DNA of 64,000 nt from a virus. The stretch spans positions 64,001 to 128,000 of the IMG/VR virus record IMGVR_UViG_3300018080_000002; one strand, 5' to 3'. This document shows positions 4,618 to 22,932 of the stretch, piece by piece. Within the stretch, counting starts at the first letter, position 1; each line of letters opens with the position of its first letter. Made by a program: the position numbers and the translations under genes. The notes beneath the pieces are model-generated. The model was not told where the DNA came from and did no database searches. It saw nothing but the letters and a program-made list of their open reading frames with translations.

Positions 4618-5595
4618 CTATGGTTTTATGGGCTTTATGGGTTCAGGAAATATTCCAGCATTGGGGTCTAACTCATCAAGAAATACCTTCACTTTTTTCC
4701 CCTTCCTGGTGGTTTTCAATATGGCATGGCCGATCTCTCTTTCGAGTTTAGCCATCCGGTTGAAAGCTTCAGGGTTGGTTTTTCGGACGGTATTCCAGTA
4801 TCCTGCTCCACCTTTGGGACAGCCAACGCAGTTGTTGTTGCAGAACGAGTTATAATTTTCTGGAAGATCAATTCCCAGGCTCTTGAGTATCCAGAAACAA
4901 TTTGCTTTGGATAAGCCATTTTCAATTAGTGGAGTCTCGACTTTTCGGTCTGGATTTCGTGCTTGGAAGTCCTGGCATCTTTTACATTCTGAGTTGTCGT
5001 ATCCGAATATCTCTTTTTTGACGTTCGGGATGAGTGAAAAAATGAGGTCATTAACCTCTCGTTTTAATATTCTTGTGCAGGGACAGCCTTTAGGCGATTT
5101 GATGAATCGCACTTTTTTGATCACTTCCCAGTGATCATTAAATCCCTGCTCGTTTTTCACTGTATCGATAACGACTTTTTTTCCTGCAATTCTTGAGTAC
5201 AGTTTTTGACACTGTTGCATGAATCGAAGGTTGTCTGGCTTTGACGCTGTTCCTGGGTCTATGCAGAGTATTTTTACGTTGTCTGCGCCATATTTTTCTA
5301 TGGCAAGCTTGCAAGCGACTGCGGAGGTTGCGCCAGCAGAGAACCATGCTATGACTGTGGATGTAGTAATAGCAATGAGCAAGTTTTTCAGTTTTTGAAC
5401 TGATACTCCAAGGATTTTTGCGAATTGACGCAATCGATTCAATGGCGGTCTTTTTATCCAGCCAGTTTCGATCTGGCCGATAGTAGATGCAGAGATTCGA
5501 TCGTTCTCATCCATTTTTTCGCTGAACTCTTTTCGTGAAAGATTTAGTTTTTCCCTTTTCTCTCGAATAAATTGCCCTAATTTTGTGGTTTTCAT
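4618..5595 (-). CDS. XRE-family HTH fused to PAPS-reductase-like (PP-loop) domain
   Basis: LGQFIREKREKLNLSRKEF..IGQIETG HTH; AWFSAGATSAVA PP-loop; CTRILKR; NNNCVGCPKGGAGYW. Confidence 0.85.
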   Translation of the reverse strand: MKTTKLGQFIREKREKLNLSRKEFSEKMDENDRISASTIGQIETGWIKRPPLNRLRQFAKILGVSVQKLKNLLIAITTSTVIAWFSAGATSAVACKLAIEKYGADNVKILCIDPGTASKPDNLRFMQQCQKLYSRIAGKKVVIDTVKNEQGFNDHWEVIKKVRFIKSPKGCPCTRILKREVNDLIFSLIPNVKKEIFGYDNSECKRCQDFQARNPDRKVETPLIENGLSKANCFWILKSLGIDLPENYNSFCNNNCVGCPKGGAGYWNTVRKTNPEAFNRMAKLEREIGHAILKTTRKGKKVKVFLDELDPNAGIFPEPIKPIKP

Positions 5596-5612
5596 ATCCC
5601 TCTCCTATATTT

Positions 5613-5656
5613 GCGTTTCGTTTTAAAACTCATCAGTGGTCGAAATGACCAGACGC
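5613..5656 (-). ncRNA. Type III hammerhead ribozyme
   Basis: Minus strand GCGUC^UGGUC-AUUUC-GACCA-CUGAUGA-GUU-UUAA-AAC-GAAACGC: full core, GUC cleavage triplet, stems I, II and III. Confidence 0.88.
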
Positions 5657-6025
5657 GACAGAGTTTTAAAGACTCTGAAAACTCTCTGTCCCTGACATCA
5701 CATTTCAAATGGAATAAAGACGCTGTTCTGAAGTACCTATCGTCAAATCTGACTAGGATCTGACGCTGGCTTACCAGTCTCAAGGTGTGATAGGACTGAC
5801 GATGATCGACTAACCATTTGCCCGTAAGGCTGGCCTCGGTTATCACCGTGGGTGTTTTAAGCCCAAATGATTGAATCCTTATGTCCGGTTGTTCAGGATC
5901 GGATTCGTTGGGGTGTCGGCAAGTTAGACCATCCTTGTAACCCCTGGGGATCGTGCATCATCCCCCCGTCATGTGATCTCAAACCGCTGATCGTACTACC
6001 CTTATTTACTCACCCTCACTGGCTT
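5657..6025 (-). ncRNA. Candidate large structured ncRNA or leader, ~370 nt
   Basis: GC-richer than its surroundings, with many nested helices; no convincing ORF. Confidence 0.6.
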
Positions 6026-6030
6026 TCTTA

Positions 6031-6076
6031 CTAACGATCGTTAGTTCTAACGAACGTTAGTAATAACGATCGGCAT
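6031..6076. promoter_or_regulatory. Three tandem palindromic operator-like repeats with 16-bp period
   Basis: CTAACGATCGTTAG (perfect palindrome), CTAACGAACGTTAG, ATAACGATCGGCAT. Confidence 0.7.
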
Positions 6077-6193
6077 TTTTTTTAAAAACTTTAGTTTTCT
6101 TAAAATATTTTTAAAGTTGTTGTAATTATGGGGAAAATTTGGGGTGAATTTGGGGAATTTTTTCTGAGGCCAAATTTTTGCGGTCAGTTTTTG

Positions 6194-6202
6194 TGATATA
6201 AT
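6194..6202 (+). promoter_or_regulatory. Extended -10 promoter
   Basis: TGATATAAT ~30 nt upstream of the SNase start. Confidence 0.45.
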
Positions 6203-6231
6203 TGAGGAAAGAATTATCACAGGAGGGATGT

Positions 6232-6711
6232 ATGAGGTTGATATCTTTACTAATTTTATCAATTAGTACCCATTTTATAGTCCCCTCTGAAATATTTGGC
6301 TATGATTTCAATAAGGTAGAGTATATTCGGAATTACGATGGCGATACGCTCAAAGTCAATATCAAGGGGATTCATCCCTTGTTGGGTCGAAATATCAGCA
6401 TTAGACTGGCTGATATCGATACAGCAGAGATCGGGGGATCTAAAAAATGTGAGCAGGAAATGGCGAAATTAGCGCAATCCTGCGTTGAAAATCTCATCAT
6501 AGGGTCTGATAGGGTTGATATCAAAAACGCGCAGAGAGGCAAGTATTTCCGCGTTGTGGCCGATGTTTATCTTGAGGGGTTTCATCTCAATACTTTGCTG
6601 CTGAAATTGGGGTTAGCGGTCCACTATAGCGGGGGGAAAAGACCGGATGTAGACTGGTGTGAAATGTTGGTCAAGGCGAAGCGGAATCGAGCACTCAATC
6701 GGTGTTTATAG
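6232..6711 (+). CDS. Thermonuclease (SNase-like) with signal peptide
   Basis: YDGDTL, IRLADIDTAE and GKYFRVVA motifs; AGGAGG SD before ATG 6232. Confidence 0.9.
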   Translation: MRLISLLILSISTHFIVPSEIFGYDFNKVEYIRNYDGDTLKVNIKGIHPLLGRNISIRLADIDTAEIGGSKKCEQEMAKLAQSCVENLIIGSDRVDIKNAQRGKYFRVVADVYLEGFHLNTLLLKLGLAVHYSGGKRPDVDWCEMLVKAKRNRALNRCL

Positions 6712-7355: not shown

Positions 7356-8372
7356 ATGACGGATGATATCAAAAAAAGGATCTTCCCAGATGGTAAGAGG
7401 AATAGGAAGAAATTAGAGGATAAACAGGACGCTTATGCGAAAATACTGGAGGAACAGCATGAACGAGTGAAGGAGATGAGGCGAAATAAAAAGATTATTA
7501 AGGGTGCTGAGATTGAGGATTCTTTGAAGCGTAATAAGGCTCATCACTCTAAGAAAAAGCAGTCATCGAAAAAGCAAACGATGTTTGATTATGGCATTCG
7601 ACCTTCAAAGCTAGAGAAATTGAAATGTTTCCCAGAGGTCGTTAGCCTTATAAAAACGGGATATCCTGCAACTGCGATCGCAAAATATATCCGTGAGGAG
7701 AGGAAAGAGTATACTGATGTTTCATTTGATGCTGTATATAAAGCGGTTCGCACATTCATTCATAAGATGCCTCCTGGAGAGGTGATTCGAGAGCGATTGC
7801 CTGGTTATTACAACACGGTTATGAACTCTATCGAAGATCAGATTGATGGAGTGAAAGCCTTGAGCGACTTGTTTCACATTCAATTTGATAGGTTGATGAT
7901 CGATTATCAGAATGAGAAAAAGGTTAATAAGCTGATTGATAGCAATACCAAAAACGTCCAGGCTGCTACAGATATAGCTTATAAACTGGAGGAGGTTCGT
8001 TATCGATTAGTTGGTCATCATGCGCGATATGGTGTTAAAGTAGAGTCAGATAAGCCATCTACAGAGGATCAATTGAGGGATATTCGTGGTAAGATTTCTC
8101 AGAAATATGGTACTCGAATGGCTAATATTGCGTCTGATCCTATCCGCAGGAGAAAGCTCTTAAATATTTTTGAGAGGATCACGAATATCGGAGAGGATAG
8201 GTTTTTAGAGGTTATTAGTAAGTATAATGAGGATGATATTGAAACGATTGATGTAACGAATACATCTCAGGAGAACACAGATGACGAACGAACAGAGATC
8301 GTTGAAGGAAGTGGAGACAGCAACGGAGAGAACTCAGCAGAAAATGGAGGAGCTGAAACCGAGGCTACATAG
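7356..8372 (+). CDS. Putative terminase small subunit
   Basis: HTH-like segment, helical core, ETIDVT-type C-terminus; lies upstream of TerL. Confidence 0.45.
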   Translation: MTDDIKKRIFPDGKRNRKKLEDKQDAYAKILEEQHERVKEMRRNKKIIKGAEIEDSLKRNKAHHSKKKQSSKKQTMFDYGIRPSKLEKLKCFPEVVSLIKTGYPATAIAKYIREERKEYTDVSFDAVYKAVRTFIHKMPPGEVIRERLPGYYNTVMNSIEDQIDGVKALSDLFHIQFDRLMIDYQNEKKVNKLIDSNTKNVQAATDIAYKLEEVRYRLVGHHARYGVKVESDKPSTEDQLRDIRGKISQKYGTRMANIASDPIRRRKLLNIFERITNIGEDRFLEVISKYNEDDIETIDVTNTSQENTDDERTEIVEGSGDSNGENSAENGGAETEAT

Positions 8373-8625
8373 ATATTTCAAATTAATTGACGGTTTCAGT
8401 CATAATCCGTTGTTGAGATATGGACGAAATGACCCTTGTATATGTGGCAGTAATAAAAAGTTTAAGAAATGTTGTTTGCCAAAATTACCAAGGGGTGTCC
8501 CATCTCCGATTGCAGATGATATGAAAAATAAGAGTGTTGGTACTCAAGCGGCTATCCTGTTAGAATATATAAAAGAGCAACAAAAACATAAGGATAGCAA
8601 TAATGAGGACATCAAAGAGCAATGA
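8281..8625 (+). CDS. SEC-C motif protein
   Basis: GRNDPCICGSNKKFKKCC. Confidence 0.85.
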   Translation: MTNEQRSLKEVETATERTQQKMEELKPRLHRYFKLIDGFSHNPLLRYGRNDPCICGSNKKFKKCCLPKLPRGVPSPIADDMKNKSVGTQAAILLEYIKEQQKHKDSNNEDIKEQ

Positions 8626-14353: not shown

Positions 14354-14566
14354 ATGTTATCGTCAGGCGTAAAGGTACTATTGTTGATCGGATTATTCAG
14401 TTTTTTAACAGGCTGTGGTAGGTGTCAGAGGACGATTACTCATTGGACGGGTGATTTGACATACAAATGTTCTAAAGGTGGAGCTGAGTATGTTCAATCA
14501 GACAGCGGTATCGCGGTTCATGTGAATCCTGATACTGGATTGCCATATCATTGCACTGGAAGATAG
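14354..14566 (+). CDS. Small lipoprotein
   Basis: Hydrophobic signal with LTGC lipobox. Confidence 0.65.
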   Translation: MLSSGVKVLLLIGLFSFLTGCGRCQRTITHWTGDLTYKCSKGGAEYVQSDSGIAVHVNPDTGLPYHCTGR

Positions 14567-14574
14567 ATTTTTAT

Positions 14575-14742
14575 GGGGATAGCGGTTACATCTGGTAACA
14601 GGTGTTGACAGGAGTGAGCGAGGTGCCTTGGCTAGACCGATCGGGCAATGGCCGAAAGTCCTAAAGAGCATCGATTGGAACCCGTACTGATCTCTCATTA
14701 TCCATTAGGTTTTGATGCAGATTGGTTGATGCTCCTATCCCC
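14575..14742 (+). ncRNA. Candidate structured ncRNA, ~168 nt
   Basis: Closing stem GGGGATAG/CTATCCCC; hairpin GTTAC/GTAAC; 11-bp GAGCATCGATT/GGTTGATGCTC; intergenic. Confidence 0.55.
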
Positions 14743-14790
14743 TCCCCTTAAAATACGAAAGCGCATTCGTTTTTTTCCAAGGAGGTTATT

Positions 14791-19983: not shown

Positions 19984-22932
19984 ATGGCGATGGCTAAAGA
20001 TAATGGTTTGCTAAACTTTTTACGGCATGTATTTGTCGATGAGTATAATATTCCTTCCGAATTGTCTCCTAACACCAGACAGGTGATGATGCCTGGGACT
20101 GGTCATAGCAGTTATTTTCAGAATATCGATACAAATTTTGGGTTAACAAGTTCTTGGCTGAAGGATTATCTCACCATAGAAAACGATCTGATTTCCAGAT
20201 ACGTTGACTATGAGGATATGGATGACTTGCCAGAGCTTTCTGCATCTTTAGATATATATTCGGACGATGCAACACAGCCAGACGGTATTACGGGAAAGAC
20301 TGTTAGGGTTGATTGCCAGGACCAAACCATATGTCAGATTCTTGAAGATCTTTACGAAAAGAATTTAAGGATTGACGAAGAGGTTTGGGAAATGGCTCGA
20401 ACCTTATGTAAGTACGGCAATGACTTTGAGGAAATTGTTATCAAGGATGGTGAGGGTGTTATAGACCTCAACTTTTTACCTCCACCGACAGTGAGGCGCA
20501 TAGAGGATACTGAAGGATCTTTGCTAGGATTTGTTCAGGATTACACGGCGAATTTTAAGATCACGACAGAGGAATTTCTGGAGCGTATTAAGAATCGGGA
20601 AGAGGAAGAGAAATATGTAGAGGAGCAGATGGAAAGAGGCTCTTTACCAGTCAAGAGTTTCGAGAACTGGGAAGTGGTACACATGCGTCTACGATCCAAG
20701 CAAAGACGATCTATGTATGGCTATGGGGTGTTGGATTCTGTTAGATGGATCGTAAAACGGTTGATGCTGATCGAAGACAGTATGCTCGTATATCGTCTAT
20801 GTTTACATGGTGATAGTAACGTTTGGACGGATAATGGGTATAAAAAAATTAAGGATATTGTAAAAGATGATGTTGTTTATTGTTATAACAATAAGGGTAT
20901 TTTAAACAAAACTAAGGTTGTTTATAAAAAACATAATGGTAAGGATACTATCTATAAAGTATCAAGTAGGCGAAGGCAGATTTTTGCCAATAAAACGCAT
21001 CCTATTTTAGTGGAGTCGGTTGAGCATAATGGCAGTGGGAATAGGAATACAATTAAACTTGAGTATGTAGAGGTTCAGAATATTGAGCCTAATATGTATA
21101 AGTTTATCATGCCGAAAGTAGAGTCAGGTGAAGATATAATATTGAATTTTCCTGATGTTTCTAAGAGAGCTTTTATCAAGTCTGATTTCTTAGGGAAAAT
21201 AGAATTAAAAAAAGGTCCACGTTTTTTAATGGAAAAATGCGGAGTTAATAGTCAGAAAATCAAACCATTCCTTAATGGTGATATTTCTCTTACAGAACGA
21301 GCAGCACTCTCATTAATGTCAGAAAATGGCTATGATGAGAGTGTTTTGGATATATACGATGATTGGGGAAGTATTGATGTTTCTGGTTTACCGAAAACTG
21401 TGGATGAAGATTTTTCCAGATGGTTTGGATTTATGATAGGTGATGGGTTTTTATCCGATCATACTCATAAAAGTGGATATATTGCTAGAAATACTGTCGG
21501 TTTTGCCTGTGGGAATAAGTTTGAAGTGAATAATAAGTATAAGGACTTATTTAAAAAGTATGTAGGCAATGTAAAAGAAAATTTTAAAGGTGATAGGCTG
21601 AATAGTTATTGTATTTGTTCGAGACAATTTTATGAGTTTATGATTTTGAATGGGTATATAAAGGGTGCTCATAATAAAAGAATACCTGAGTGGGTTTTTA
21701 GGAGTGAACTAAAAATTAGAAAGGCTTTTATTTTTGGTCTTATTGATGCTGATGGGATGGTTAGAGATAATGGAAAAGATGTTTCTATTGAGATGTGTAA
21801 TAAAGATCTAGTAAATGATCTTAGAATTTTGTGCATGCAATCTGGTTACAGTGTAGGAAAAGAGATCAAGAGACGAGAAAGGTCTGGTGGTCATATAATA
21901 GAAGGCGATCATCGTGCTCCTGAGACTGTATCATATTGTTTGAATTTTAGTTTCAATGAATCTGAGGATAGAGAAAACATTTTAAATGTAGAGATTGTGG
22001 GCATAGACGATATTTATGATATTGGAGTGGAGGCTGAAGAACATAATTTTGTTTCCGATGGTGTTGTCGTACATAATACTAGAGCACCAGAGCGTTTGGC
22101 TTTTTACGTAGATGTTGGTGACATTCCTCCAAACGAAGCTTTAGGGTACGTCAAAAAGGTCAAGAACGAGTATAAAAAGAAAAAGTGGGTTGATCCTAAT
22201 ACGGGAAAACTCGATATGTCTTACAATCCTTTGAGCGCGGATGAAGATTTTTTTGTCCCAGTAAGAGGGGATAAGAGGTCGGCCAGCATTGAGAGTATAG
22301 GTGGAGCGAACTACCAGCCGACAGACGATGTTAATTACTTCAAAGATAAGTTATATTCAGGACTTAAGATTCCAAGAGACTTTTTAAACTATACTGAGGG
22401 TGGAGCTTCCAAGGCAAACTTATCCACAGAGGATATGCGGTTTGCCCGATCTATTCTTCGCATCCAGCGAGAGATCAGAAACGGTTTGAAAAAGGTTGGC
22501 AGGGTGCATTTGGCATCATTCGGCATACAGCCAGATATTGTCGAGTGGGAAGTTATGCTCAATCCTCCATCGAGTATATTTGAGTTAGCTCAGATGGAGG
22601 TAAGGAATGCTCAGTTGGACCTAGCAGATAGATATAGGGCTTTTGCCAGCCAGTATTGGATTATGCGCGAAATACTGCATATGACGGATGAGGAGATTGA
22701 ATCTATCAATACTGAGCGTAAAAAGGAAACCTTGGATAAAACCAGTTATCCTGAGTTTGAGGCTAGGGATTATCCCAGAAATTTCTTCAATGGAAATCGA
22801 GAGGCTGAAAAAATTCTTTCTGAGAATTGGGAAAAAATGATGACGCAGAGTCCATATCTCAAAAAGAGATTTGATGAATTACGAGGATTGATTTCTGATA
22901 TGAGAATCCATTTACAGAAACGGAGAAAATAA
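19984..22932 (+). CDS. Portal protein (T4 gp20-like) containing an intein
   Basis: LMLIEDSMLVYRL|TRAPER.AFYVDVG...EDFFVPVRG...LKIP. Confidence 0.93.
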   Translation: MAMAKDNGLLNFLRHVFVDEYNIPSELSPNTRQVMMPGTGHSSYFQNIDTNFGLTSSWLKDYLTIENDLISRYVDYEDMDDLPELSASLDIYSDDATQPDGITGKTVRVDCQDQTICQILEDLYEKNLRIDEEVWEMARTLCKYGNDFEEIVIKDGEGVIDLNFLPPPTVRRIEDTEGSLLGFVQDYTANFKITTEEFLERIKNREEEEKYVEEQMERGSLPVKSFENWEVVHMRLRSKQRRSMYGYGVLDSVRWIVKRLMLIEDSMLVYRLCLHGDSNVWTDNGYKKIKDIVKDDVVYCYNNKGILNKTKVVYKKHNGKDTIYKVSSRRRQIFANKTHPILVESVEHNGSGNRNTIKLEYVEVQNIEPNMYKFIMPKVESGEDIILNFPDVSKRAFIKSDFLGKIELKKGPRFLMEKCGVNSQKIKPFLNGDISLTERAALSLMSENGYDESVLDIYDDWGSIDVSGLPKTVDEDFSRWFGFMIGDGFLSDHTHKSGYIARNTVGFACGNKFEVNNKYKDLFKKYVGNVKENFKGDRLNSYCICSRQFYEFMILNGYIKGAHNKRIPEWVFRSELKIRKAFIFGLIDADGMVRDNGKDVSIEMCNKDLVNDLRILCMQSGYSVGKEIKRRERSGGHIIEGDHRAPETVSYCLNFSFNESEDRENILNVEIVGIDDIYDIGVEAEEHNFVSDGVVVHNTRAPERLAFYVDVGDIPPNEALGYVKKVKNEYKKKKWVDPNTGKLDMSYNPLSADEDFFVPVRGDKRSASIESIGGANYQPTDDVNYFKDKLYSGLKIPRDFLNYTEGGASKANLSTEDMRFARSILRIQREIRNGLKKVGRVHLASFGIQPDIVEWEVMLNPPSSIFELAQMEVRNAQLDLADRYRAFASQYWIMREILHMTDEEIESINTERKKETLDKTSYPEFEARDYPRNFFNGNREAEKILSENWEKMMTQSPYLKKRFDELRGLISDMRIHLQKRRK
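20800..22077 (+). mobile_element. Intein with LAGLIDADG homing endonuclease (426 aa)
   Basis: CLHGDS N-terminus, HPIL block B, FGFMIGDG and FGLIDADG motifs, VVHN|T C-terminus. Confidence 0.95.

Follow-up and report, generated by a model that had tools for sequence, protein, structure and literature searches.

A block of about 370 nt separates two divergent genes of a T4-like phage, and it raises the question of whether it is an RNA with a function of its own or the leader of a messenger, trimmed off by a probable ribozyme. An initial annotation had described it as a highly structured RNA of no recognised family, with G-U pairs that favour the minus strand, bounded at its 3' end by a hammerhead, and had proposed that operators, RNA, ribozyme and the adjoining enzyme form one unit. 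We asked which of these claims stand and what arrangement best explains the locus.

Genomic context of the block

The window that was analysed, 64,000 nt in length, comprises bases 64001-128000 of a complete IMG/VR virus record (IMGVR_UViG_3300018080_000002) of 157,357 bp, with direct terminal repeats and 40% GC; coordinates are those of the window unless the genome is named. Since the genome encodes a Gp23-family major capsid protein (MCP; PF07068) together with a T4-type portal, prohead protease and tail sheath, the phage is a T4-like myovirus.

The block (5657-6025, minus strand) occupies the spacer that separates a leftward gene from a rightward one. The leftward gene (4618-5595, minus strand), the first of a leftward operon, encodes a 325-aa protein in which an XRE-type helix-turn-helix (HTH) domain (Pfam HTH_3, E 1.7e-11) is fused to a PAPS-reductase-like (PP-loop) domain (PHROG 424, phosphoadenosine phosphosulfate reductase, E 2e-35); nearly all of the 606 homologues of this protein are about 250 aa long and align to the enzyme part of the query only. 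The Shine-Dalgarno (SD) sequence AGGAGAGGG (5598-5606, minus strand) lies 2 nt 5' of its ATG (5595-5593). The rightward gene (plus strand) is staphylococcal-nuclease-like; its open reading frame is listed from 6202, and a 159-aa gene call on an independent assembly sets the start at ATG 6232. Where the neighbours of homologues of this nuclease were checked, the contexts were unrelated. An extended -10 element, TGATATAAT, at 6194-6202 (plus strand), about 30 nt upstream of the nuclease ATG 6232 (after the SD sequence GGAGGG), is a likely rightward promoter.

At the 5' edge of the block stand three operator-like sites (6031-6076) at intervals of 16 bp. Those at 6031 and 6047 are perfect 14-bp palindromes, CTAACGNNCGTTAG, and the one at 6064 is degenerate; a pattern count places them nowhere else in the 157-kb genome. 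Because the TGATATAAT promoter is 120-165 bp away from them, the palindromes more likely control the leftward unit. A sigma-70 scan found no sigma-70-type promoter for that unit.

The closest phage relative, a 160-kb genome recovered from Logan contigs (L155), has an MCP 82% identical to that of the present phage, and synteny with it holds at 7587-8598. The approximately 30 kb of its genome that were read contain, at the syntenic place, nothing that corresponds to the region between about 2000 and 7355. This region contains a methyltransferase gene, five leftward genes including that for the HTH/PAPS-reductase, the leader block, the hammerhead, the nuclease gene and an 86-aa open reading frame. 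As the relative lacks it at the syntenic place and synteny resumes at 7587, the region looks like a variable accessory island of a T4-like genome.

To the left lies a region rich in RNA genes, where ARAGORN finds 18 tRNA genes at genome positions 57,986-64,777, just left of the window and reaching into it (703-776). Among the tRNA genes is a 543-aa open frame of the TROVE/Ro60 family, with Pfam matches at about 60.4-61.2 kb of the genome; a gene for RtcB ligase is absent from the phage genome.

Composition and coding potential

GC-rich, ORF-free blocks in AT-rich genomes are a classic sign of structured RNA. The block has a GC content of 47.5%, against 40% for the genome, which places it at the 98.5th percentile of genome windows, and it holds no long open reading frame with a normal start. 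When the genome was searched for 300-nt windows of at least 46% GC with no open reading frame of 100 aa or more, only the tRNA arrays, the leader block and a stretch of the window at 14401-14775 were recovered. This composition argues for an RNA gene, and it keeps alive the possibility of a non-coding RNA private to this phage.

The longest open frame in the block, of 121 codons (5595-5957, minus strand), traverses the ribozyme and has as its only start a GTG at 5846. It matches no Pfam or PHROG family, and phmmer found no counterpart among 1.84 billion representative proteins. A reading of the block as coding sequence or pseudogene was rejected, six-frame translation, Pfam, PHROGs and phmmer all being empty.

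A hammerhead ribozyme at the 3' boundary

The 3' boundary is indeed a hammerhead. The Rfam model for type III hammerheads (RF00008, Hammerhead_3) matches 5610-5659 on the minus strand with 42.3 bits (E-value 1.5e-7 locally and 4.4e-9 genome-wide), core and stems spanning 5613-5656, and this is the single hammerhead in the whole genome. The score falls below the Rfam gathering score of 48.5, mainly because of a very short, AU-rich stem II. The core is complete, with CUGAUGA at 5636-5630, GAAA at 5619-5616 and the cleavage triplet GUC at 5654-5652. All three helices are present: stem I has 5 bp (UGGUC/GACCA) and a loop AUUUC, stem II has 3 bp (GUU/AAC; one G-C and two A-U) and a loop UUAA, and stem III has 4 bp (GCGU/ACGC). 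Stems I and II are capped and stem III is open, II and III being minimal. The hammerhead fold is not the minimum free energy (MFE) fold of its region.

Hammerhead cleavage leaves a 2',3'-cyclic phosphate on the 5' product and a 5'-OH on the 3' product. Judged from its sequence, the present ribozyme is probably self-cutting; alignment to the hammerhead consensus puts the predicted cleavage site after C5652 of the GUC triplet (5651-5652, minus strand), that is, 56 nt upstream of the HTH/PAPS-reductase ATG (5595). In predicted folds, the mean unpaired probability of the SD sequence is 0.56 in the precursor and 0.69 in the cleaved RNA; with a change of only this size, folding by itself shows no evident benefit for translation and unmasking is not the main effect of cleavage; it is more likely that the cut defines the 5' end, insulates the mRNA from the leader or alters stability. 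The idea of an anti-RBS clamp was likewise discarded, the complement to the ribosome-binding site (RBS) being only 4 bp long and SD accessibility being barely altered by cleavage.

Folding of the block compared with chance

Every helix listed in the initial annotation can be read on the minus strand at its place, and most of them recur in predicted folds. Folding statistics, expressed as z-scores against dinucleotide-preserving shuffles, did not bear out the description of the block as highly structured. For 5660-6025 on the minus strand the ensemble energy gives z = -0.36, and mean base-pair distance (z = -0.06) and positional entropy (z = +0.05) lie at the shuffle mean. The MFE z-score of the same stretch is -0.52 on the minus strand and +0.73 on the plus strand, so that the supposed strand preference survives as a slight and weak one, and the block as a whole, at about -0.5, is no better than the shuffles. 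When the flanks are included, the MFE z-score is -0.61 on the minus strand and +0.20 on the plus strand, and for subdomains values range from +0.58 to -1.93.

The best predicted fold belongs to a 216-nt core (5760-5975, minus strand), a multibranch structure closed by the UGACG/CGUCA pairing, for which the z-scores of -1.85 and -1.61 are marginal. Between 3 and 5% of shuffles fold equally well, and the ensemble is better defined than that of about 97% of them. This core was picked after seeing the data, so these values are not significant on their own, and we regard them as suggestive. The hairpin GACAGAGAGUUUU / AAAACUCUGUC that adjoins the hammerhead (5657-5690, minus strand) is alone no stabler than shuffles (z = +0.53). 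No GNRA or UNCG tetraloop occurs among the hairpin loops of the leader. The predicted fold varies with the stretch that is folded, and the 9-bp AAUCAUUUG/CAAAUGGUU helix is missing from the best core fold. These results show that the leader block, as a whole, has no folding beyond chance, an outcome that the initial annotation itself had named as counting against its claim. The initial observation is thus confirmed in part: the block is non-coding, its helices can be read and the ribozyme does bound it, but its structure does not exceed what shuffles reach.

Searches for homologues of the leader

When 5300-6500 was compared by cmscan with 4227 Rfam families at E<=10, the hammerhead and noise were the only matches, so the leader remains, as first described, an RNA of no recognised family. 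A full Rfam scan at gathering thresholds also gave no RNA family for it. GOLLD, ROOL, HEARO, OLE, raiA, RNase P, tmRNA, group I and II introns and riboswitches were considered as candidates and set aside, none of their covariance models matching at E<=10; ARAGORN, too, found no tmRNA. The leader is single-copy in its own genome and has no blastn match in 50,697 phage records. Over 2.8-5 kb, two further assemblies of this phage match the sequence at 100% identity and show no population variation.

If RNA, ribozyme and enzyme belonged together, they would be expected to occur together, and among the homologues of the enzyme examined they do not. The nearest homologue of the enzyme (P0002; 54% identity), found in 2.3-kb metagenome contigs, is the only close one that is also fused to an HTH; its 216-nt upstream spacer contains a terminator-like hairpin and an AT-rich stretch, with no hammerhead and no similarity to the leader. 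In 80 viral PAPS-reductase loci nhmmer found no match to the leader, and their flanks held no hammerhead. An nhmmer search among metagenome relatives of the HTH-fused enzyme added no further case linked to the leader or to a ribozyme.

Searches that started from the ribozyme or from the phage gave a similar picture. At 60 loci (13 + 40 + 7) with similar type III hammerheads, from IMG/VR and GTDB, nhmmer detected no upstream similarity to the leader, and a loop-anchored pattern scan and an exact hammerhead-string scan were empty or at chance level. Fifty T4-like relatives from IMG/VR, with MCPs of 45-58% identity, amount to 3.9 Mb and include four that are at least 90% complete; they contain no type III hammerhead, and BLAST of the leader against them gave chance matches of 14-19 nt only. 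The core in its predicted fold was also made into a single-sequence covariance model, which had no match in these 50 relatives or in 42 other loci. Together, the BLAST, nhmmer and covariance-model searches for leader homologues covered about 4.5 Mb of related or hammerhead-bearing DNA. Within all data searched, the leader is a lineage-specific orphan.

Comparison with known hammerheads and large RNAs

For comparison, type III hammerheads were collected by pattern from IMG/VR and GTDB. In 17 of the 32 evaluable distinct phage or bacterial examples, an SD sequence and a start codon opening at least 30 codons follow within 45 nt. Since these 17 stand just before an RBS and a start, the arrangement of the present ribozyme is an ordinary one, and comparison hammerheads of the same design precede unrelated genes. 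Four IMG/VR phage contigs (L108, L121, L137 and L140) carry two type III hammerheads each, close together, in agreement with the tandem sets that Perreault et al. 2011 (PMC3088659) describe.

In phages and prophages, hammerheads flank genes and have been proposed to cut long transcripts into gene-length mRNAs (PMC3088659). The ribozyme studied here resembles phage type III hammerheads (RF00008; PMC3088659) in having the full core, three stems with stem III open, and a place just 5' of an RBS; it differs from them in its sub-gathering score, owing to the very short AU-rich stem II, and, unlike the tandem phage ribozymes, it is single and is preceded by a long non-coding leader rather than by a gene. 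Our literature search found no link of hammerheads to PAPS reductase.

A parallel is offered by the haloviruses HF1 and HF2. In HF2 an early transcript has a hammerhead ahead of its first ORF, and the mapped 5' end of this transcript is within three nt of the cleavage site (PMC3088659). As described for HF1/HF2 (PMC3088659), the ribozyme here would follow the promoter and precede the first cistron of a polycistronic unit, and its cleavage would set the mature 5' end. The comparison, made by description only, has its limits: HF1 and HF2 have an archaeal host and a helicase as the downstream gene, and the HF2 ribozyme is a core variant. Our analysis suggests that the order of promoter/operators, leader, hammerhead and first cistron matches the HF2-type pattern.

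Engineered and large natural RNAs provide further points of reference. RiboJ is an engineered insulator in which the sTRSV hammerhead, with an added 23-nt hairpin, is placed upstream of an RBS. As in RiboJ, the ribozyme would remove a variable upstream leader and give the mRNA a fixed, structured 5' end before the RBS; unlike that engineered part with its extra 23-nt hairpin, the 5'-terminal hairpin here would be stem I itself. With GOLLD and ROOL, and also HEARO, OLE and raiA, the leader shares a length of several hundred nt, a non-coding nature, a phage genome and a position near tRNA genes. In contrast to them, it has no covariance-model match (E<=10) and no conserved family, and it is not a member of any of these classes.

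Interpretation of the locus

With modest confidence, we lean towards reading the block as a long 5' leader, specific to this lineage, which belongs to an accessory leftward operon and is cut off by an ordinary phage hammerhead. Leftward transcription would most likely start at or just upstream of the palindromes (6031-6076), and the transcript would pass through the non-coding block and then through the minimal type III hammerhead. To judge from the intact core, the ribozyme would cut between C5652 and U5651, releasing a leader of about 370-430 nt that ends in a 2',3'-cyclic phosphate; release of this 5' product is to be expected because stem III has only 4 bp. The HTH/PAPS-reductase mRNA would be left with a fixed 56-nt 5' UTR consisting of a 5'-OH end, the stem I hairpin and then an open SD sequence. 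The ribozyme may thus act as a natural insulator and end-maker, as hammerheads before many phage genes may do, and the leader itself would be a by-product or have a local role private to this phage. The unit foreseen in the initial annotation is, in this sense, partly supported: the parts are co-linear and probably form one leftward transcription unit, which is plausible from their arrangement, while a conserved RNP or regulatory RNA system is not supported, the RNA and ribozyme being absent beside the homologues of the enzyme examined.

Three other explanations were weighed against this one. The block might be a functional structured non-coding RNA private to the phage lineage, acting in trans or as a cis sensor, for which the hammerhead makes a precise 3' end. 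Its GC-rich, ORF-free composition at the 98.5th percentile, with tRNA arrays and one candidate small RNA as its only counterparts in the genome, points in this direction, as do the z-scores of -1.6 to -1.85 and the well-defined ensemble of the core, the slight folding preference for the minus strand and the closeness, within a few kb, of the RNA-rich region that holds 18 tRNAs and the Ro60/TROVE gene. The whole block, however, folds at z -0.5 with no stable tetraloops and a fold that depends on the stretch chosen; it matches no Rfam family, BLAST, nhmmer and covariance-model searches of about 4.5 Mb gave no homologue, and the independent assemblies are identical. We therefore regard this explanation as unlikely. 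A more specific form of it, in which the block is a new lineage-restricted, structured trans-acting RNA of about 370-430 nt (for example a decoy or scaffold), whose 3' end with its 2',3'-cyclic phosphate is made by the hammerhead and not by a terminator, and which is possibly tied to Ro60/Y-RNA-like machinery of the phage, appears decidedly doubtful.

It is also conceivable, and in our view rather unlikely, that the hammerhead came with the island as a relic, inactive or very slow, and that the block is spacer DNA, possibly a decayed gene or a recombination scar, in which case the mRNA would keep the whole leader or begin at a nearer promoter. The sub-threshold Rfam score, the weak 3-bp stem II and the 4-bp stem III, an MFE fold that is not the hammerhead fold, the absence of the island from the syntenic place in the closest relative and the 121-codon open frame spanning the block are all consistent with such decay. 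All core nucleotides are intact, however, the placement before an SD sequence is typical, and the open frame lacks a homologue in 1.84 billion proteins as well as any Pfam or PHROG match. Very improbable, finally, is the proposal that operators, large RNA, ribozyme and HTH/PP-loop enzyme are one conserved unit, such as an RNP or an RNA modified or bound by the enzyme. The four parts are co-linear and probably co-transcribed, and the operator-like sites are found at this spot only in the genome; the only close HTH-fused homologue, however, has neither leader RNA nor ribozyme, the 80 viral PAPS-reductase loci show no leader similarity or hammerhead and the metagenome scan added none, and hammerheads of the same design stand elsewhere before unrelated genes.

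If the block is a leader, as we prefer, the locus adds one more natural phage hammerhead that acts as 5'-end maker and insulator, here at the very start of an accessory operon. Such a reading would help to annotate accessory islands, and the ribozyme, with only 3 bp in stem II, would be of use as a minimal insulator part of natural origin; no new class would be opened. The residual interest lies in the GC-rich orphan block: if it proved to be a stable RNA, this would show that ribozymes can replace terminators for phage small RNAs.

Other features of the window

The window contains another GC-rich block, about 210 nt in length and free of long open reading frames, at 14567-14778 (plus strand), immediately downstream of a small lipoprotein gene. 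The helix GGGGAUAG/CUAUCCCC closes it, and at its end stand a hairpin and U-run that resemble an intrinsic terminator; the MFE z-score of the block is -1.59, and no Rfam family matches it at E<=1. We consider it a candidate phage small RNA.

The portal open reading frame (19984-22932, plus strand) encodes 982 aa, against 563 aa in the relative with the 82%-identical MCP, and its residues 265-364 match a PHROG annotated as anaerobic ribonucleotide reductase large subunit. The greater length of the frame, together with this internal match, suggests that an element, possibly an intein, is inserted in the portal gene.
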